A DNA stretch of 21,783 nucleotides from a virus, in UHGV virus genome UHGV-0017033; one strand, 5' to 3'. Position 1 is the first letter of the stretch. Each line of letters starts with the position of its first letter. This document shows positions 11,582 to 21,782 of the stretch, piece after piece. The notes beneath the pieces are model-generated. The model saw nothing but the letters and a program-made list of their open reading frames with translations, made no database searches and was not told the origin of the DNA. A program made the translations under genes and the position numbers.

Positions 11582-12274
11582 ATGTTATATGCATTTAAGC
11601 TGGGCAGAAAACTGCGCAGCGAGGAACCTTATTGTCCTGAAAAAGGCGGGAAAGGTGGCAGCTCTGATAAAAGCGCAAAGTATGCGGCAGAAGCTCAGAA
11701 GTATGCCGCAGACCTGCAAAATCAGCAGTTCAACACCATCATGAACAACCTGAAGCCGTTTACTCCTCTGGCTGATAAGTATGTCGGCAGCCTCGAGAAC
11801 TTATCGTCTCTGGAGGGGCAAGGTCAGGCGCTAAACCAGTATTACAACTCTCAGCAGTACAAAGATCTTGCTGGTCAGGCTCGCTATCAGATTCTGGCGG
11901 CAGCGGAAGCAACAGGTGGATTGGGTTCCACTGCAACCGGTAATCAGTTAGCAACAATCGCACCAACGCTTGGTCAGCAGTGGCTGTCTGGTCAGATGAA
12001 CAACTACCAGAATCTGGCAAACGTTGGGCTTGGTGCTCTGCAAGGTCAGGCAAACGCAGGGCAGACATATGCCAACAACATGAGTCAGATTTCGCAGCAA
12101 AGTGCGGCTCTTGCAGCGGCAAATGCCAACAGACCATCAGCAATGCAATCTGCTATTGGCGGAGGTGCGTCTGGTGCTATTGCTGGGGCTGGACTTGCGA
12201 AATTAATTGGTTCATCAACTCCGTGGGGTGCTGGTATCGGTGCTGGTCTTGGTCTGCTTGGCTCGTTGTTTTAA
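11582..12274 (+). CDS. Ejection (internal virion) protein, P22 gp7-like
   Basis: 230-aa ORF; Gln/Ala/Gly-rich with glycine-rich hydrophobic C-terminus GAGIGAGLGLLGSLF; position and length match P22 gene 7. Confidence 0.8.
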   Translation: MLYAFKLGRKLRSEEPYCPEKGGKGGSSDKSAKYAAEAQKYAADLQNQQFNTIMNNLKPFTPLADKYVGSLENLSSLEGQGQALNQYYNSQQYKDLAGQARYQILAAAEATGGLGSTATGNQLATIAPTLGQQWLSGQMNNYQNLANVGLGALQGQANAGQTYANNMSQISQQSAALAAANANRPSAMQSAIGGGASGAIAGAGLAKLIGSSTPWGAGIGAGLGLLGSLF

Positions 12275-12284
12275 GGGGTAATCA

Positions 12285-13649
12285 ATGGCTACGTGGCAAC
12301 AGGGTATTAATTCTGGTGGTTTTCTGGCTGGCATCGGTACGCAAAATGAGAATGCGCCAAAGGCAAGCGACATTAACGCAACGCTTGGTCTGATCCGCGA
12401 AAACAATGAACTGGCTCGCTCAGGTGCAAATAACGTTGGCCTGACCGCGTTACGTGGTCTGGCTGGAGTTGCTGATATTTACAATCAGGAACAGCAACAG
12501 AAAGCTATTAGTGCGTTCAATAAGGTTCACGCTGATGCATGGGCTTCTGGTGATCCATCGGGACTATTTAAGTTTGCCCAGGAAAATCCAGCGTTTGTTG
12601 CACAGGCACAACAGGCGTTTTCCGGTCTTAATGATCAGCAACGCAACGATATGGGCGATTTAGCCATGAGGGCTAACGTCGCTCTTTCTCAGGGACCGGA
12701 AGCCTACAGTAAATTCATTACTGATAACAAGGACAGGTTAAATCGCGTGGGGGCGAATGCTGACTGGATGATTCAGACAGGTATTCAGAATCCAGAGCAG
12801 CTATCACACATGCTGACTACTATGTCTCTCGGTGCACTTGGGCCAGAAAAGGCGTTTGCTGTTCAGGACAAGATGGCTGGTCGTGAAATTGACCGAGGCA
12901 GGCTGGCAGAGACAATCCGCAGCAATCAGGCTGGCGAGGCGCTAACAGCACGAGGTCAGAATATCACGATGCGCGGTCAGGATTTATCGATGCAGAGAGC
13001 ATCAATGAAAGGGGCGGTTGGGAATAATGAGCGTACAGTTCAGTTAGCAGATGGCAGAACTGTAACGGTAGGCGGGAAGCTTCACGGCGCTGGGGCTAAT
13101 GCGTTCTACGAAGGTATCGACAACGAGGGGAATATGGTTCGCGTTCCTGCTGGCTCTATTGCCGCTCCGGCTACATCGGCAGCAAGCGCGCAGAATTACG
13201 CAATGAAGAAAGATCTTGATGCAATTTCTGGTGCATCAATTGACGATCTTGGCTTCATGACTGGCATTACAGGCTCTTCAGGTTCTCCTGCTCTTGGTGC
13301 AGATATTCGTAGCCGTGCATCTGGTGGTGATCAGAGGAAACTATACAACGCTGCACAGCGAATCCAAGGAAAGATGCAGAATCAGGGCATTGCAGCAGCC
13401 AGAGACATGGGGGCATCCGGTATCAACACCGTTGCAGAAGCAAAGATGTATTTTCAAGGTATGCCACAGGTTGATTTCTCAAGCCCTGAAGCACTGCAAC
13501 AATCAATGCGCGACATTCAGCAATATACCGACAATTACAACCAACAATATAACGTTAATGTTGGTAAATCTCAGCGGCAGCAATCTCAACCTACACAGGT
13601 ATCACAGCCAGCAGCCAGCAGTAACTTTTCTTCACTATGGGGTGATTAA
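12285..13649 (+). CDS. Ejection (internal virion) protein, P22 gp20-like
   Basis: 454-aa ORF following the gp7 homologue; low-complexity Ala/Gln/Gly-rich composition typical of ejection proteins; positional match to P22 gene 20. Confidence 0.8.
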
Positions 13650-15808
13650 TGGCTAAAGCATGGAAAGATGTTATCGCCTCTCCACAGTATCAGGCGTTAA
13701 CTGAAGAACAGAAAGCACAGGCTCAAGCGCAATATTTTGATGAGGTTGTTGCCCCTAAGGCTGGTGACAAATGGGCTGAAGCAAGAGATCAGTTTTATGC
13801 AGCATACCCTCCGCCTCAGCAGCAGAAAGAAGAACCATCATTGATGCAACAAGCTGGTGATTGGCTCACAGGTGGTCAAAGTGCAGGGCAAATTGCAGAG
13901 CAGGCTGGTCGTGGTCTGGTAAACATACCATTCGACGTATTACAGGGCGGCGCAAGCCTGATTAATGCAATCAGCCAGGGGCTTGGTGGCCCCAAGGTTT
14001 TGGATGATGTTTATCGTCCAGTCGATCGACCGACAGACCCTTACGCGCAAGCCGGTGAAACAATTGGTGGGTATCTCCTGCCAATTGGCACAGCGGCAAA
14101 AGCTGCTGGAGCGCCAGCAAAGCTCGCTGAAAATATCGGTTCCGCAGGAAACATGATTGCAGGCTCTCTTGCTGATGCTGCAAATCAGGAGGGTGATTTT
14201 GCACAAAATGCTGCCATTAACGGTGGTATCAATATTGGTGCTCAAGGCGTTCTTTCAGGTGTCGGGCGCGTTATTGCGCCAAGGGTTTCACAGGCTCTTG
14301 GTGGTGCAGCACTGAATTCTGCTAATGATGTTTCCAGGATGGCAAAGTCAGGTGCTGGGCGTCAGTCAATTGCCAGTCAGGCCGCTAATGTGTCCGAAGA
14401 TGTAGCAAAAGCGGCTGAGTCTGCTGGAATTGATATAAACGCATTAACACCAGGAATGCGATCTGGAAGTCGTGGAATTGCACAAGCCGAAGGCGCATTG
14501 GCATCAACACCAGGGATTGTTCAGGATGCCCATCAGGCAGCATTTAACGAAATATCATCAAAGTTAAGTCGAAACCTTGATGAATTTGGGGCCGCATCTG
14601 GAACGGCATCAGAAAAAAGTGCGGCTATAAAACAAAGGATTCTTAAAAATCTTGATCAGATGAAGGATGCTGAGCGCGCGGCATGGGATGACGTGCGGTC
14701 AACAATGCCAAATCAAAAAGCAAGAATGCTAAATGGTAATGCCGTTATTCAGGCAGAGCGATCTGCTGGCATACCGCTTACTCCTGAAATGAAACAGTTT
14801 GTTCAGGCAAACAATCAAGGTGGAGTAACATTTGATGGCATGAAAGCATGGAGAGCGAAATTTGCTGATGCGGAGCAAAAATATAAGCGTAGCGGAGAGG
14901 CAAATGCGGCAAGGAGAGCAGGGGAAATACGTCGGGCAATTACTGATGATATGCGCACAATGGCGGAAAACGGCGGATTTTTTGATGACTGGCAAAAAGC
15001 TAATGATCTGTCTAAAGCGAGGCTATCCGCACAAGAGAGTGCAGAGTCTGTTTTTGGGCGTGATTTGGCAACAGATGCACTGATTACGAATGGAGTAAAA
15101 TCTCTTCAATCATCGTCAGCTAAAGGTCTTAATGGTCCTGCTGGATTCCATTCTATGATCCGCGCGCTGCCAGAATCAGAGCGTGTTCCTGCTATATCAT
15201 CAATGTTGCAGGATGCTATCTCGCATGGTGTACGTGGTGGCAAATCTGATGCAGCAGGAATTAACCATATCGCAGGGATACTTACACCACAAAATGTAAA
15301 AGCCATTAGCAGATATTCCTCAGAACTTGGAAGAATTGCTGATGCATATGGCACTCTTGCAAGAGCAGCAGTGAAACCTCAGCAGTATATTGAAAGAACA
15401 GGGAGAACTGCCAATGTACTACGCGATCTGGATGCTGGTTTATCCAACGTCACATCAACAGTGTTAAATGCAATTGCCAACTCAACATCAGGTGCCATTG
15501 TTGGTGGCGCTGGAGGGGGCATTGCAGGCGCTGCCGCGGGTGCTTTAGTTGGCGCCGGGTTAAAAGGCGCTGTATCTAAAATTGCCACCACACGTAGTGG
15601 TCGATATGCGATAGAGAAAGCTGTTCAGGAAGCCACCAAAGCAGTAAGAGCTGGCGGAAGTAAAGAAGCATTAGCGGCGGCGGAACGCAGATTTATGGCA
15701 AATAAAGCCGCCGTAAAAGCAATACGTGATGCAGTTGGAAACGAAGAGTTCAATCGCTTAGCGAGGGCTGGCATTGTAGCGTCGCTAAGCGGAATAGCAC
15801 AGGAGTAA
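13649..15808 (+). CDS. Ejection (internal virion) protein, P22 gp16-like, apparently extended
   Basis: 719-aa ORF, last gene of the late-operon block; Ala/Gly-rich with hydrophobic glycine-zipper-like segment [24 protein letters not shown] near the C-terminus; positional match to P22 gene 16. Confidence 0.8.
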
Positions 15809-16132
15809 TTAATCATCCATGGATGGATTGAGCTTATCTCGTGTTGATGTGGCGATTTGTCCTACATTCCTAATCCAAGATTTCAAATCCTTGATATTGT
15901 CATTGATTTCATGAATATCTTCTTTTTTTAGCCTGTTAATATTATTCTCAATAATTTCAATGGATTGCTCAATATCAGATATGGTGAATGATAGTTTGTT
16001 CTTCTCATCTTTTATTGAGTTTTTAAGTGCTTCGTTCTCAGTCTTGAGGTCAGATATCTTTTGTTTTAAAGATGCCAGTTGGTACTGAACCACAATGAGT
16101 GCGATAGCTATCACGATAACTGTTGTATACAC
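15809..16132 (-). CDS. Small membrane-anchored coiled-coil protein (moron; function unknown)
   Basis: 107-aa minus-strand ORF starting at GTG with a strong AAGGAGG Shine-Dalgarno 5 nt upstream. N-terminal transmembrane helix TTVIVIAIALIVV followed by a heptad-rich Lys/Glu/Asn/Ile segment. Lies in a strikingly AT-rich islet, tail-to-tail with gp16. Confidence 0.65.
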   Translation of the reverse strand: MYTTVIVIAIALIVVQYQLASLKQKISDLKTENEALKNSIKDEKNKLSFTISDIEQSIEIIENNINRLKKEDIHEINDNIKDLKSWIRNVGQIATSTRDKLNPSMDD

Positions 16133-16249
16133 ACCAACCTCCTTAGTTTTGAGCAGGATACCATGAAAAAAGTAAACATCTTTTGCCTACTTCACATTTG
16201 AATGGTTTGTCATTAGGATGTTTCCGGTTTTTTAAATATGGAAATTGAT

Positions 16250-16669
16250 ATGAAGAGGATTATTGGCGTCGTTGCTGGCGCTATATTGTTATCTGGGTGC
16301 GCAACTATTGTTGGTGACGAAACGCAGCTTGTGCAAGTGAACAGCAATCCTTCCGGTGCGAGCTTTAAGGTAAAAGACGAATCAGGCGTGATTGTTGCGC
16401 AAGGTAAGACCCCGCAAGGAGTAACTCTTGCCAAGTCAGATGGTAGTTATTTTGGCAAAAAGAGCTACCAGATCACTATGGAAAAGGATGGGTACGAACC
16501 AGTTACCCTGCCAATCAAAGCCAATGCTAATGGCTGGTATATTGGTGGAAACCTTGTGTTTGGTGGGTTAATTGGTTGGCTTGCTGTAGATCCTTTTAAT
16601 GGTGGGATGTATACCTTGAAGCCAAAAGAGGCAAACGCATCTCTTATACCATCAACAAAGCAAGACTAA
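16250..16669 (+). CDS. Putative outer-membrane lipoprotein with PEGA-like domain (moron; function unknown)
   Basis: Signal peptide MKRIIGVVAGAILLSGC with lipobox LSGC; NPSGASFKV...GKTPQGVTL...KDGYEP resembles a PEGA domain (recalled motif); Gly/Trp-rich C-terminal segment. An upstream in-frame ATG at 16238 is an alternative start. Followed by an intrinsic terminator. Confidence 0.7.
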   Translation: MKRIIGVVAGAILLSGCATIVGDETQLVQVNSNPSGASFKVKDESGVIVAQGKTPQGVTLAKSDGSYFGKKSYQITMEKDGYEPVTLPIKANANGWYIGGNLVFGGLIGWLAVDPFNGGMYTLKPKEANASLIPSTKQD

Positions 16670-16677
16670 TAAATAGG

Positions 16678-16700
16678 ACCCACCTTCAGGTGGGTTTTTT
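16678..16700 (+). terminator. Intrinsic terminator after the lipoprotein gene (overlaps the mnt 3' end)
   Basis: ACCCACC-TTCA-GGTGGGT perfect 7-bp stem followed by a T6 run, 9 nt after the lipoprotein stop. Confidence 0.65.
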
Positions 16701-16937
16701 GTACAAATCCTTCAGCGTATCAAACACCATCTTCTTAACAAGCTCTGACTGCTCATCAGCGAGTCGTTCTGCATCGTCGCGATATCCAGTCACAGGCGAT
16801 GGTTTTGATAGAGCATCTTGGACGATTTGTAACAACTCGGAGTTCATTGATCTCCCATTCGCCTCCGCCCTGAATTTTAATTTCTCCCTTACTTCCATAG
16901 GCATACGGAAGTTAAAGTGCGGATCATCTCTAGCCAT
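16686..16937 (-). CDS. mnt: Mnt repressor (ribbon-helix-helix)
   Basis: 83-aa translation MARDDPHFNFRMPMEVREKLKFRAEANGRSMNSELLQIVQDAL... matches my recollection of P22 Mnt almost residue for residue. Confidence 0.9.
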   Translation of the reverse strand: MARDDPHFNFRMPMEVREKLKFRAEANGRSMNSELLQIVQDALSKPSPVTGYRDDAERLADEQSELVKKMVFDTLKDLYKKPT

Positions 16938-16959
16938 GCCATCACTCCAAGTTAGTGTA

Positions 16960-16988
16960 TTGACATGATAGAAGCACTCTACTATATT
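16960..16988 (+). promoter_or_regulatory. Pant-like promoter (-35 TTGACA, -10 TATATT) overlapping the arc operator
   Basis: TTGACA at 16960-16965, 17-bp spacer, TATATT at 16983-16988, directly upstream of arc; matches the known P22 Pant arrangement in which Arc binds between -35 and -10. Confidence 0.55.
16965..16985. promoter_or_regulatory. Arc operator (O-arc)
   Basis: ATGATAGAAGCACTCTACTAT, the 21-bp arc operator sequence as I recall it from P22, located between mnt and arc. Confidence 0.7.
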
Positions 16989-16994
16989 CTCAAT

Positions 16995-17011
16995 AGGTCC
17001 ACGGTGGACCT
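16995..17011. promoter_or_regulatory. Mnt operator (O-mnt)
   Basis: AGGTCCACGGTGGACCT, a 17-bp palindrome symmetric about the central base, matching the P22 mnt operator as recalled; lies between the arc operator and the arc start codon. Confidence 0.75.
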
Positions 17012-17189: not shown

Positions 17190-17262
17190 AGTTGAAGCCC
17201 CAACTGCGGGAACAGTCAGGGCTTCGGTTGTCAGTAAATCCGTGGAGAAAAACCAACATGAA
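17190..17262 (-). ncRNA. sar: Putative sar antisense RNA (small antirepressor-regulating RNA) in the arc-ant intercistronic region
   Basis: By analogy with P22, where a short antisense RNA is transcribed from the arc-ant spacer and pairs with the ant ribosome-binding site. The minus strand here contains inverted repeats GAAGCCC/GGGCTTC. Exact ends are not determinable from sequence alone. Confidence 0.4.
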
Positions 17263-18193
17263 TAGTATAGCAATTTTAGAAGCAGTGAACACCTCTTACG
17301 TACCATTCAACGGTCAGCAAATTATCACCGCCATGGCTGCCGGAGTTGCATATGTTGCGATGAAGCCAATCGTTGAAAACCTTGGAATGAGCTGGTCAAC
17401 GCAGCAAACAAAACTCATGAAGCAGATTAGCAAATTCAACTGTGTTCATATGAACATGGTTGCCGCTGATGGGAAGCTTCGTAAGCTACTCTGCCTTCCT
17501 TTGAAGGAGTTAAATGGATGGCTGTTCAGCATCAACCCTGAGAAAGTTCGTGCTGACATCCGTGATAAACTGATTCAGTACCAGGAGGAATGCTTTAGCG
17601 TGCTGCATGACTACTGGACTAAAGGCCATGTAGTTAACCCACGCAAAGCTAAAAAGGCGTTGCCGGGTAAAATCACCACTGAACAGCAGGAAGCCATAAA
17701 ACAACTCGTCATGAGTCGCGGTCAGTCTCTGCCAAAAGAAAAACAGGCTAAGGCGATGATCACCATGTGGTCGTCACTGAAATCCCATTTTGGATGTTCG
17801 TACAAAGAAATCAGTGAGGAGCAGTTTACCGAAGCACTATCACTTGCAGCTCGAGTTCCACTTGAAGGTGAGTTCATTGGAAAACAAGAGAAGAAAACCA
17901 ACGAGCTTTCTGCAAAAGAAGCAAACAGCCTTGTATGGTTATGGGATTATGCCAACCGCTCACAGGCATTATTCCGCGAACTGTATCCGGCGCTAAAACA
18001 AATTCAATCGAACTATTCCGGCAGATGCTACGACTACGGTCATGAATTCTCGTATGTTATCGGAATGGCGAGAGACGTTTTAATCAATCACACACGAGAT
18101 GTTGATATCAATGAGCCAGACGGACCAACGAATCTTTCCGCATGGATGAGACTTAAGAATAAAGAATTACCTCCTTCAGTACATAACTACTGA
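17258..18193 (+). CDS. ant: Antirepressor Ant
   Basis: Internal ATG at 17258 gives [33 protein letters not shown]..., matching the P22 Ant N-terminus as recalled; immediately downstream of arc as in immI. The track ORF extends upstream to 17192. Confidence 0.85.
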
Positions 18194-18293: not shown

Positions 18294-20297
18294 ATGACAG
18301 ACATTACAGCCAATGTTGTGGTAAGCATGCCTTCGCAACTCTTCACTATGGCTCGTTCTTTTAAAGCGGTTGCCAATGGCAAAATTTATATCGGTAAAAT
18401 TGACACTGACCCTGTAAATCCTGAAAACCAGATTCAGGTTTATGTGGAGAACGAAGACGGCTCTCACGTTCCTGTATCGCAACCAATCATCATTAACGCC
18501 GCTGGTTACCCTGTATATAACGGACAGATTGCCAAATTCGTAACTGTGCAAGGCCATTCTATGGCTGTTTATGATGCATATGGTGCGCAGCAGTTTTATT
18601 TTCCTAATGTGCTGAAGTATGATCCTGATCAGTTATCTATAAAACTATCAAGTAATATTGGATACAAATACATTGGAATGGTAGAGAGCGCTAACTCCCT
18701 TAAAGATATACAAGGAATGTCGATATCTGATAAATTATATTTAAAATCATACGTATCCGGACTCGAACTTGGTGGTGGGTTTGTTGTAGCTGTAGACAAG
18801 TCAATTGCAGTTGATAACGTAATGGTTTTAGAAGGTAACGGTGTAAATTGGAAGAGAATAAACCCAAGCCTTGAGTTTTCTGTATATGACGCTGGTTACA
18901 GCGGCGCTGGGGATATTGCATTATTTATTAATAAAATAAACTCTCTAGGTTATGATTGCGTTGTTCCATGTAGTGGAGAATTCTCGTCTTTAATTGATAT
19001 TGATTTCGCGAAGGGTGGGTTAAGAGGAACGAATAAATGCGTTTTAACTGAGATTAATGGGATATCAGGTGATTATGCAATTAGGTTAAGCAGCTCTAAT
19101 ATTTCTTATGATAATAGGGATGAAATAAATGCAACATCAATTTTAGATGGCATATCTTTTAAGATGCTAGGATCTAAAAAGATTTTACTTGGAGGTATTG
19201 GCGCTGGTGAATTATCAGAGTTAAGAATAAGTAATTCTTCATTCATATCATCTGCTGGAATTGAGTTTCTTGATAATTCATATAGAATTTTATTTGACAA
19301 GGTAACAATATCAAGATGTCTAAACAACACAATTATATTTAATTCTCCATCAAACTCAGGCGAGGTAATGACATTTAATAATTGTTGGGTTGTTGATAAT
19401 GGAGGTCCATTGACAATTAGAAATGGTCAATTTATTTTTAACTGTTGCTCTATGCCAGCAGGTAAGAAAGAAGGTTATTTTGATTCTACTGTTTTTATTG
19501 AAGATAACGCAACCGTTGTTTACTCAAGTGGAAATATTGAGTTTCAGCCAGGTCAAAGCTTTGTTGCGTTCTCTTCATCTGGAAGCACAAGAATAAGCAT
19601 TAAAGATACAACGCTACTTACTCCCTCTGGATATAGTTCAGTTCCGTTTGTTGTAAATGATGATTCAGTACTTTCATTAACAAATTGCTCATTGCCTTTA
19701 TTTGACCAAATGGATTTGGCGACAGGATCAGCAACTAGACAGGTAGTTGGAGGTAATAGTAAAAAAATAATGTCATATGGATGCTATCCACGATCTGGAT
19801 TTATAACAACTCAGTGGGATAAAGGGAACATAGTTAGTCCATACATAAATTCGCTATCAAATGGAAGTGGACAGTTTTTAAACTACTCTAACTGGAGCCT
19901 TCAACAAACTGGTTCAGGTGTTGTTACAGCAGGAACGGATTCTGATGTTCCAAATGATATTATGTTTTCCAGGTCTTTGTATGTAGCAATACCATCTATA
20001 GGAGCATCTGCAAAATTTTATCAGGAGTGCTCAGACTGCTCACCAGGACGATATTTCCAGTTAGGTTTTTGGGCTAAGAATCAAGTGACAACAATCTCTG
20101 GTATTGAGTTTTTTGATAAAGAAGGGAACTCTGTTCAGGGAAAAGCAACATTTACAATTCCACTAGGCTCCACATGGAATTTCTACGCATTAATAGATAT
20201 TGTTCCTCCTGGAGCAAGCAAAGTTAGGATTGATTTTGATGTTTCCGGTGAAGCAGGCTCTCTTCATTTGCATAATGTTATTTATGGGCTGATTTGA
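18294..20297 (+). CDS. Tailspike protein: conserved P22/Sf6-type head-binding N-terminal domain fused to a divergent, AT-rich receptor-binding body
   Basis: N-terminal ~112 aa ([43 protein letters not shown]...VLKYDPDQ) match the conserved head-binding domain of P22-like tailspikes. Beyond about nt 18630 the DNA becomes visibly AT-rich and the protein no longer resembles P22 gp9 as recalled. 667 aa. Confidence 0.85.
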
Positions 20298-20388: not shown

Positions 20389-21546
20389 TCACTCCACCTT
20401 TTCATCAATCCAATCCGCCCACCATTGCATCATTTCTCTGCGCTTTTCTAGATACTGAGCATGGTTGTAAATCCCACGCACAGATCCGCCGTTGGCATGT
20501 GCCAGTTGCACTTCAATAGCGTCAGCAGGCCATTCGTGCTCGTTCATAATTGTGCTGAATTCATGCCTGAATCCGTGACCGCTTTCCAGACCCTCATAGC
20601 CGATTTGTTTGATCACAAGTAGCACCGCGTTCTCGCAGATTGGCTTCTTCTTATCGTTGCGTCCGGCAAAAACAAACTCTGATACTGGTTTGGTGATGGA
20701 GCTTAGCGTAGTGAGAAGTTCAACCACCTGGTCTGACATCGGGACCACATGAATTTTGCGTCCCTTCATCACACTGGCGTCGATGGTGATAATCCTGTTT
20801 TCAAAATCGACGTTCTTCCATAGCATGGAACGAAGCTCTTTCGTTCTTAGGGCTGTGTAGCGTAAAACTTTGGTCGCAATGAGCGATACGATGCTTCCTG
20901 AAAATGTTGCCAGTGCTTTGTTGAATGCAGGGATCTGGTCTGCAGGAAGAAACGGGAAGTTCTTCTTGCGGTATCCTTTCATGGCGTCAGCAAGGTCAGG
21001 TGCCGGGTTATATTTAGCCCTGCCGGTGACAATAGCGTAACGGAAAACCTCGCCGCATCTTCTGCGGGCTTTATTGGCTCGTTCCATTGCACCGCGATCT
21101 TCAAATCTGCGGATTACTTCCAGCAGTTGCATCGGCTCAATATCCTGAATTTCAAGGCCGCCGATGATAGGTAAAATGTCGTCATCAAACATTTTTGCAA
21201 GTTCAGTCGCATACCCTACTGACCATACTTGCTTCTTGTGCTCGTACCATTCCTTGTAAATCGCACTAAAGGAATTGTTGTTAGACGAAGCCTTTTTCGC
21301 CTTTACCGGATCGATGCCAACCGAGATGTCTTTCCTCGCAGTCCATGCCTTATCCCTTGCCTCCTGCAAAGTCATTAGCGGATATTTTCCTACGGTCAGG
21401 ATTTTCTCCTTACCGTCAATCTTGTAGCGAAGCTGCCATACCTTTTTCCCGGATACAGGGACATAAAGGTACAGGCCATTACCATCGAGAAGGCGGTATG
21501 GTTTTTCTTTCGGCTTTGCTGCTTCAATCTGCTTAACGGTGAGCAT
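20389..21546 (-). CDS. int: Tyrosine site-specific integrase (argW-associated IntS/Sf6-type)
   Basis: Translation from the ATG at 21546 (MLTVKQIEAAKPKEKPYRLLDGNGLYLYVPVSGKKVWQLRY...) has an integrase N-terminal arm-binding domain and a C-terminal catalytic region with HGFRHEF and a downstream RGIY-type tyrosine motif. Same strand as, and directly downstream of, tRNA-Arg. The track ORF extends to a GTG at 21582. Confidence 0.9.
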   Translation of the reverse strand: MLTVKQIEAAKPKEKPYRLLDGNGLYLYVPVSGKKVWQLRYKIDGKEKILTVGKYPLMTLQEARDKAWTARKDISVGIDPVKAKKASSNNNSFSAIYKEWYEHKKQVWSVGYATELAKMFDDDILPIIGGLEIQDIEPMQLLEVIRRFEDRGAMERANKARRRCGEVFRYAIVTGRAKYNPAPDLADAMKGYRKKNFPFLPADQIPAFNKALATFSGSIVSLIATKVLRYTALRTKELRSMLWKNVDFENRIITIDASVMKGRKIHVVPMSDQVVELLTTLSSITKPVSEFVFAGRNDKKKPICENAVLLVIKQIGYEGLESGHGFRHEFSTIMNEHEWPADAIEVQLAHANGGSVRGIYNHAQYLEKRREMMQWWADWIDEKVE

Positions 21547-21707
21547 GGGTAAAAATCCGGTGGGTAAAATTATTTTATCCACTTTTTACCCGTCATGGAG
21601 TGCGGCTGTCAACGATCTGAAGCGAACCATGGCGAACTGTGAATCTACGGAAGGCTTGATATTAAGGGGATTTTGCGGACTGGTACGGATGGGAGCGAAC
21701 TGATAAA

Positions 21708-21782
21708 TGGTGTCCCCTGCAGGAATCGAACCTGCAATTAGCCCTTAGGAGGGGCTCGTTATATCCATTTAACTAAGAGGAC
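21708..21782 (-). tRNA. argW: tRNA-Arg (anticodon CCU), complete 75-nt gene with encoded CCA; argW-type phage attachment target
   Basis: Minus-strand sequence GTCCTCTTAGTTAAATGGATATAACGAGCCCCTCCTAAGGGCTAATTGCAGGTTCGATTCCTGCAGGGGACACCA folds as a cloverleaf (acceptor GTCCTCT/AGGGGAC, anticodon stem with CU-CCT-AA loop, T-loop GGTTCGATTCC) and matches E. coli argW as I recall it. Confidence 0.93.

Follow-up and report, generated by a model that had tools for sequence, protein, structure and literature searches.

A moron gene for a predicted outer-membrane lipoprotein in the ant moron region of a P22-like Escherichia coli prophage

The 21,783 nt sequence of UHGV virus genome UHGV-0017033, referred to here over its whole length as the window, constitutes the late region of an Escherichia coli prophage of the P22-like (Lederbergvirus) type. 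Between gene 16 and mnt it carries a 139 amino acid (aa) open reading frame at positions 16250-16669 of the plus strand, which ends with a TAA stop codon followed by a second TAA and is a homologue of gene 15 of Salmonella phage epsilon34 (phrog_6823). Very probably this gene forms an autonomous moron, consisting of a candidate promoter, one gene and a terminator, and encodes a lipoprotein, which is predicted to reside in the outer membrane. The gene is already catalogued and has been on record since the 2008 epsilon34 genome paper. Villafane et al. named the gene 16-mnt region the "ant moron" and described it as the sole insert in the P22-like late operon that varies strongly and is non-morphogenetic (PMC2629481); the term moron, applied to the gene in an earlier sequence-only reading of the window, matches this published description.

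That reading had proposed a 143 aa open reading frame starting at 16238. An open reading frame does span 16238-16669 on the plus strand, but translation almost certainly begins at the second ATG, at position 16250, since the phrog_6823 profile and every homologue open with MKR or MKK, and since phage Gally lacks the 16238 ATG but keeps the 16250 ATG together with a GGAA Shine-Dalgarno sequence. In the match to the phrog_6823 hidden Markov model (E-value = 6.8e-86), residues 5-143 of the 143 aa frame align with positions 1-139 of the 139 profile positions.

The N-terminus of the protein, MKRIIGVVAGAILLSGC, satisfies the PROSITE PS51257-type rule for bacterial lipoproteins, i.e. a positive n-region, a hydrophobic h-region and a lipobox [LVI][ASTVI][GAS]C within approximately 35 N-terminal residues. 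The signal peptide (16250-16300, plus strand) consists of MKR (n-region), IIGVVAGAILL (h-region) and the lipobox LSGC, with Cys17 as the predicted lipidation site. The lipobox Cys is invariant among 47 close homologues. In a more distant alignment of 151 sequences, which comprises 150 family representatives (clusters at 50% identity) and the query, it is kept in 149. The lipoprotein signal seen in the earlier reading is thus borne out by the rule and by the conserved Cys. Ala follows the Cys at position +2 in 141 of the 151 sequences. In E. coli, Lol sorting follows this residue, Ala at +2 predicting an outer-membrane destination. The product would then be sorted to the outer membrane, as suggested by the Ala at +2 and by one homologue that carries a C-terminal fusion to an OmpA-like beta-barrel.

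Window positions 15700-17000 show 97.8% nt identity to epsilon34, with the same neighbours (hkcB homologue, mnt, arc and ant). The epsilon34 counterparts, gene 14 (hkcB-like) and gene 15 (ACF16641.1), are both annotated as conserved hypothetical. Gene 15 is the same gene, three signal peptide substitutions apart: 19 synonymous and 3 non-synonymous differences separate the two copies (dN/dS = 0.04, dS = 0.23), and because all three replacements fall in the h-region, the mature protein is identical in the E. coli prophage and the Salmonella phage. The gene is under strong purifying selection. The protein is also 100% identical to GALLYPH_14 of phage Gally, a prophage of E. coli LF82, which has another minus-strand neighbour than the window and is without arc and ant. 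Taken together, the matches to epsilon34 gp15 and Gally gp14 have 97.8-100% identity. A 99% identical protein is found in vB_EcoP-720R6. Epsilon34, Gally and vB_EcoP-720R6 are the three distinct phages (4 records) that carry the gene among 50,697 phage records, whereas it is absent at the same locus in P22, CUS-3 and SEN22. Absence from most P22-like phages suggests that the gene is dispensable for the lytic cycle. It is present in 124 of 5,426 complete E. coli genomes.

Transcription of the identical coding sequence can be followed in RNA sequencing data from the LF82 lysogen, re-analysed by Misson et al. and given in their S1 Table as log2(fpkm+5), where fpkm is fragments per kilobase per million (PMC9928086). 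The figures pertain to the Gally copy, which has a diverged upstream spacer, and not to this exact prophage. GALLYPH_14 shows paired values of 6.22 and 4.79 after overnight growth in lysogeny broth (LB), 9.82 and 10.19 after 1 h in Dulbecco's modified Eagle medium (DMEM), 10.49 and 10.24 after 6 h in DMEM, 11.03 and 11.00 after 1 h in macrophages, and 9.39 and 9.50 after 6 h in macrophages. The level of transcription thus depends on conditions, and amounts to roughly 900-2100 fpkm in DMEM and macrophages. The three injection-protein genes directly upstream remain at background (2.3-4.2), the left neighbour GALLYPH_13 reaches 7.9-10.3 in DMEM and macrophages, and GALLYPH_14 is second only to the c2 repressor gene (8.9-12.0). 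High GALLYPH_14 levels while late genes are silent indicate transcription from the repressed prophage that does not depend on the late operon and comes near the level of the repressor gene. Thus the claim of an independent unit expressed from the prophage holds, with GALLYPH_14 at 9.4-11.0 against the upstream background. Other host-adaptation morons, Bor for instance, are likewise reported to be induced in DMEM (PMC9928086). A second expression readout was sought in the lambda-like LF82 prophage Perceval, which has no homologue, and the accessible portion of the text of an LF82 CRISPRi (CRISPR interference) preprint holds no data on Gally genes 13 and 14.

A role within the lytic cycle would take the form of protection of progeny on cell debris, as by T5 Llp, or of late modulation of lysis or of the envelope. 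The late-gene orientation in every phage context seen, and a position that is always within tail or ejection gene clusters, agree with such a role. However, the high expression while late genes are silent, the gene's own terminator and candidate promoter, and the existence of chromosomal orphan copies make it improbable.

The intergenic region of 117 bp (16133-16249), flanked by divergent genes, has the same sequence in the window, in epsilon34 and in E. coli A35. In A35 the identity reaches the Shine-Dalgarno sequence of the minus-strand gene, though that gene is unrelated to the one in the window. Between the window and A35 the swap junction lies at the start codon of the minus-strand gene, and the ribosome-binding site and the whole spacer stay with the lipoprotein gene. 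A candidate sigma-70 promoter is located at 16191-16219 on the plus strand, with TTCACA as the -35 hexamer, a 17-nt spacer and TAGGAT as the -10 hexamer; transcription is predicted to start at approximately position 16226. The Gally intergenic region has diverged, and the only blocks conserved in it coincide with the predicted hexamers (TTCACG and TAAGAT there, with a 17-nt spacer), which is taken as reasonable but unproven support for a promoter at this site.

Seven bases 3′ of the double TAA lies an intrinsic terminator on the plus strand, a 9-bp GC-rich hairpin with the loop TTCA (16676-16697) followed by T6 (16695-16700). The fold energy is -13.8 to -14.7 kcal/mol (z = -2.5), and the epsilon34 record marks the same element as a Rho-independent terminator; both uphold the hairpin and T6 terminator named in the earlier reading. 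A terminator scanner flagged the hairpin on the minus strand only, and the plus-strand terminator rests on the fold and the epsilon34 annotation. It is believed that the G-T pairing rule of the scanner lets the plus-strand stem take up part of the T-run. Overlooked earlier was the relation to mnt: the mnt stop codon is inside the terminator loop, and the right arm and T-run represent the last mnt codons (Y-K-K-P-T). The hairpin may serve both the lipoprotein and the mnt transcripts, although its minus-strand tail is no more than CCTATTTATT. P22, which is without the lipoprotein gene, has a weaker hairpin at the same place. Among the homologue copies aligned or scanned, those in E. coli HK97-like and Proteus prophages have an equivalent hairpin and T-run on the 3′ side, and the Proteus hairpin resembles that of the window.

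The gene thus displays patchy presence, its own terminator and, in the Gally lysogen, prophage expression, as is characteristic of morons. A deviating base composition is not found: the GC content of the lipoprotein gene (0.45) is close to that of the window (0.47) and of mnt/arc/ant (0.45). It is hkcB and the intergenic region that deviate, with values of 0.34 and 0.33, respectively.

Beyond the signal peptide, the predicted protein consists of a transthyretin/PEGA-like beta-sandwich domain at residues 25-93 (16322-16528, plus strand) and a family signature, WY..GN...GG..G....DP..G.M, at residues 96-120 (16535-16609, plus strand). Among the 150 representatives, residues 96-120 and not the sandwich form the best-conserved stretch of the family, with W96, Y97, G100, N101, G105, G106, G109, D114, P115, G118 and M120 each 91-99% conserved. 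This Gly/aromatic segment includes a hydrophobic peak, VFGGLIGWLAV. The Pfam PEGA model (PF08308) gives 17.5 bits (E-value = 0.004), below the gathering threshold of 20.8 bits. None of 47 homologues reaches the cut-off, and 11 of the 47 give sub-threshold matches (best E-value = 0.0015). The PEGA-like segment of the earlier reading therefore stands as to the sandwich fold but not as to the Pfam score, and PEGA is a fair label for the fold class and not for family membership. A search of the PDB with the family profile gives marginal Ig-like matches only, NCBIfam yields nothing beyond a weak motif-level match to the uncharacterised LEPBI_I2678 family, and none of the PADLOC defence-protein model families matches the lipoprotein; HkcB yields coiled-coil noise only in the PADLOC search.

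Longer chromosomal relatives, e.g. P0140 (365 aa), P0136/P0147 (325/352 aa) and P0109/P0116/P0118/P0120, extend the core in three ways: by an OmpA-like 8-stranded C-terminal barrel, by long Pro/Ala-rich tails, or by a conserved C-terminal sequence "SIVLL.DVP..L...M". These architectures might help in guessing the cellular role of the family.

The adjacent gene (15809-16132), which adjoins gene 16, is a homologue of hkcB (phrog_5962) and encodes a 107 aa protein in which an N-terminal transmembrane (TM) segment is combined with a coiled coil. The gene lies on the minus strand, i.e. it is transcribed opposite to the lipoprotein gene, as had been described. It had further been suggested that the two products could form a two-component envelope system. 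Both are envelope-targeted, and the genes have one divergent intergenic region in common in the window and in epsilon34. The association was followed in viral loci, namely in 79 of the 80 IMG/VR loci recovered, of which 75 have a gene of >=96% identity and are P22-like where flanks were recovered. The upstream neighbour is HkcB in 12 of the 79 loci, and in 11 a second TM and coiled-coil protein weakly similar to HkcB (33% identity over 67 residues), so that 23 of 79 loci might be counted in favour of a pair. However, a phrog_2651-type protein, apparently secreted, holds the position in 20 of the 79 loci, and a phrog_6067-type protein with its own lipobox (LLAGC) in 17. In 15 there is no upstream neighbour and the lipoprotein gene directly follows gene 16; the other 4 show different neighbours in siphovirus contexts.

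The E. coli chromosomes give the same picture. Full-length hkcB is present in 72 complete genomes and the lipoprotein gene in 124, but the adjacent pair is found in only 10; the lipoprotein gene has a phrog_2651-type neighbour in 45 and a phrog_6067-type neighbour in 24. Most of the 72 hkcB genomes are thus without an adjacent lipoprotein gene, as are CUS-3 and SEN22, which carry hkcB, and siphovirus and chromosomal copies of the lipoprotein gene stand alone, with no such neighbour. The pair is not fixed, each gene being common without the other. The two-component idea is thus largely refuted by co-occurrence, and it is very improbable that the lipoprotein and HkcB work as such a system.

In P22, sieA fills the minus-strand slot right behind gene 16. 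For this reason HkcB, and not the lipoprotein, is the positional counterpart of SieA. The minus-strand slot past the gp16 gene is a swap site for at least five envelope-targeted proteins, namely SieA (P22), HkcB (window), the second TM and coiled-coil protein, and the phrog_2651-type and phrog_6067-type proteins. The slot can be compared between the window (15809-16132, minus strand) and loci L014 (326-820), L003 (3614-3982), L023 (1881-2396) and L110 (4553-4882).

The lipoprotein family extends well beyond P22-like phages. An exhaustive search gives 3,682 representatives (clusters at 50% identity) at an E-value of 1e-3 or better. Members are spread over the Proteobacteria, for example in Photorhabdus, Lonsdalea, Pasteurellaceae, Halomonadaceae, Betaproteobacteria and Zetaproteobacteria, and one Bacteroidota metagenome-assembled genome has the gene as well. 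The family is widespread and mainly chromosomal outside Enterobacteriaceae; in Enterobacter, too, the family member is an orphan chromosomal gene. Chromosomal neighbours are ordinary genes such as those for MurJ, ArgS and a lipid A acyltransferase. A search for a conserved partner gene in 80 species-level genomes found none, the best candidate being present in 11 of 80 loci in unrelated housekeeping contexts. This broad chromosomal distribution with no conserved partner gene would fit a conserved host target.

Within phages, four different insertion sites of family members are seen, all of them in tail or ejection gene clusters. Homologues in siphovirus prophages are single-gene inserts with 68-78% identity, co-oriented with the late genes. 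In lambda-like Pseudescherichia prophages the homologue is situated between gpI and gpJ. In Proteus prophages it is found just before the tape-measure gene, preceded by a terminator and a promoter-like site and followed by a terminator. In HK97-like E. coli prophages a 68% identical homologue lies between the tail chaperone T gene and the tape-measure gene, in the slot of the original HK97 gene-15 moron, which is an exclusion gene (PMC3594210). The HK97-like E. coli prophages with the homologue also display a porin gene between tail genes M and L (L005/L007 10261-11424; L006 10809-11593), and one variant has a ClpP-like protease and an Arc/antirepressor module past tail gene L. The porin, protease and Arc/antirepressor inserts look like further tail-cluster morons.

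The proposed mechanism would start from a gene captured from the widespread chromosomal lipoprotein family and now held as a moron cassette in the variable ant moron of a P22-like prophage, beside intS and tRNA-Arg(CCT). It would be transcribed from the repressed prophage, apart from the late operon and according to conditions. The product would be exported by Sec, lipidated at Cys17 and sorted by Lol to the outer membrane, with the transthyretin/PEGA-like sandwich facing the periplasm. The near-invariant Gly/aromatic loop beside the lipid anchor may dip into the inner leaflet of the outer membrane or grip a conserved envelope component, and the protein would act without HkcB.

As to phenotype, the gene may bring about lysogenic conversion of the envelope, to the benefit of the lysogen under host-associated or stress conditions, a possibility that is placed somewhat short of an even chance. 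The model for this is lambda Bor/Iss, a prophage-expressed outer-membrane lipoprotein that confers serum resistance. Both are small lipoprotein morons that are widespread in enterobacterial prophages, are expressed while the prophage is repressed and, by the LF82 data, are induced in cell-culture medium. The proposed likeness is one of logic and not of fold, which differs. The lipoprotein shows no PHROG match to Bor; moreover, bor is in the lysis region whereas the lipoprotein gene is in the tail/ejection region. The leaning to envelope fitness derives from a family that is cellular and widespread, from a mature protein that has not diversified, and from expression that rises in DMEM and macrophages, as is reported for Bor.

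Phage exclusion is the main alternative to envelope fitness, chiefly on position. Here the lipoprotein would mask a receptor, or would keep incoming phages from forming their trans-envelope DNA conduit at the outer membrane or in the periplasm, and in function would be akin to Cor/Llp or to SieA/HK97 gp15. In P22-like phages the gene adjoins the slot that holds sieA in P22, and the 68% identical homologue occupies the HK97 gene 15 exclusion-moron position (PMC3594210). Other copies are between gpI and gpJ or ahead of the tape-measure gene, the minus-strand neighbours are all envelope-targeted, and the gene is expressed in a lysogen (Gally). However, there is no homology to Cor, Llp, SieA or the PADLOC models. 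The gene is found in podoviruses as well as in siphoviruses of several kinds, for which one common receptor is unlikely, and non-phage chromosomal copies occur in free-living Proteobacteria. The sequence shows extreme conservation instead of arms-race diversification, and expression is low in LB stationary phase. Exclusion is regarded as rather unlikely. Broad chromosomal distribution and extreme conservation would speak for a conserved host partner more than for a receptor-specific blocker.

Cor (phi80, N15 and HK022) and Llp (T5), which the earlier reading put forward as the functional model, are phage-encoded lipoproteins that inactivate FhuA. The likeness to them is limited to lipoprotein nature. 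No homology to Cor is found beyond the signal peptide, the phrog_1119 match (E-value = 0.0036) spanning residues 5-24 only, and there is no PHROG match to Llp. Cor and Llp are phage-restricted and receptor-specific, whereas the lipoprotein family is mainly chromosomal outside Enterobacteriaceae and is found in phages with different tails. P22 SieA and HK97 gp15 block DNA entry and are polytopic or integral proteins of the inner membrane. Here the likeness is of genomic address, beside the sieA slot and, for the homologue, in the HK97 gene-15 slot, but these are inner-membrane proteins and the lipoprotein is predicted for the outer membrane. Neither shows homology to it, and the SieA PHROG family is not among the PHROG matches.

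SlyB was also considered as a relative. This PhoP-regulated lipoprotein of the outer membrane combines a glycine-zipper membrane hairpin with a beta domain. The likeness consists of a lipid anchor, a Gly-rich hydrophobic segment and a small beta domain, and is analogous only. The domain order is reversed, and the hydrophobic segment of the lipoprotein (approximately 19 residues) is too short for a two-helix hairpin. Homology to SlyB was rejected, with an hhalign probability of 1.3%, no significant BLASTP alignment and no Pfam Gly-zipper match.

Several points weigh against the moron lipoprotein and envelope-fitness reading. The location of the gene, next to the sieA slot of P22-like phages or, in siphoviruses, at the HK97 gp15 position, favours exclusion equally well. 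The candidate promoter matches the consensus at 9 of 12 positions, which alone is not above chance in shuffled sequences. The role of the loop and the outer-membrane site are inferred, and AlphaFold2 confidence is low (<50) at residues 96-113. Source names within the family are all "hypothetical", "lipoprotein" or "PEGA domain-containing", and the literature searched gave no phenotype for any family member. In addition, the authors of the LF82 study scored Gally as moron-free (PMC9928086). That score results from the use of LB data only with a 5-fold cut-off, as GALLYPH_14 averaged 3.3-fold over background in LB.

The kind of gene is a familiar one, since prophage morons for envelope lipoproteins are represented by Bor, Cor and Llp. 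As a catalogued gene of familiar kind it is not surprising to a phage biologist. The family however comprises thousands of members without one characterised representative. In cell-culture medium and inside macrophages, few genes of a very active prophage in a Crohn's-associated E. coli are transcribed more strongly than this one, and the family has been independently inserted at several tail/ejection-cluster sites, with two addresses tied to known exclusion genes. A bolder view, held to be unlikely, is that the family provides the first characterised example of a new class of outer-membrane lipoprotein effectors repeatedly captured by temperate phages of different tail types. If this were so, the invariant loop would engage a conserved envelope component. 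The gain would lie either in a broad, receptor-independent barrier to genome delivery, set up at the outer membrane or in the periplasm, or in a more stable outer membrane for lysogens that live inside hosts. Expression of the gene is high in macrophage-resident adherent-invasive E. coli LF82.

The remaining features of the window are those of a P22-like late region. The gp7 ejection protein (11582-12274) and the gp20 ejection protein (12285-13649) are identified by Pfam matches, and the gp16 homologue (13649-15808) by the PHROG "DNA transfer protein" profile. On the other side of the lipoprotein gene, mnt (16686-16937, minus strand) is convergent with it and arc is downstream, and the sar antisense RNA (17190-17257, minus strand) is found with an Rfam score of 95.6 bits. 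The ant gene is downstream of arc on the plus strand. The mechanical open reading frame list gives it a span of 17192-18193, with a TTG start at 17192 and 333 aa. The true start is most likely the ATG at 17291, because epsilon34 Ant has 903 bases (300 aa) and because, in the translation from 17291, the N-terminal domain of the P22 antirepressor starts at residue 3. The sar RNA fills the interval between the TTG at 17192 and the ATG at 17291.

The tailspike gene (18294-20297, plus strand) has a conserved P22 head-binding domain at residues 1-113. The low GC content of the gene, 36.7% compared with 47.3% over the whole window, suggests that the receptor-binding part was exchanged recently. Directly past the tailspike gene are an IntS-type integrase gene (20389-21582, minus strand) and then tRNA-Arg(CCT) (argW; 21708-21782, minus strand). 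An Rfam scan found only sar and the tRNA, with 15.8-16.7 kb empty. The P22-like element is integrated, since an E. coli chromosome shows this same order beside intS, argW and yfdC. The integrase and argW arrangement matches that of E. coli F374 (L105), and the IntS-type integrase may be either part of the P22-like prophage or a resident argW-associated integrase.

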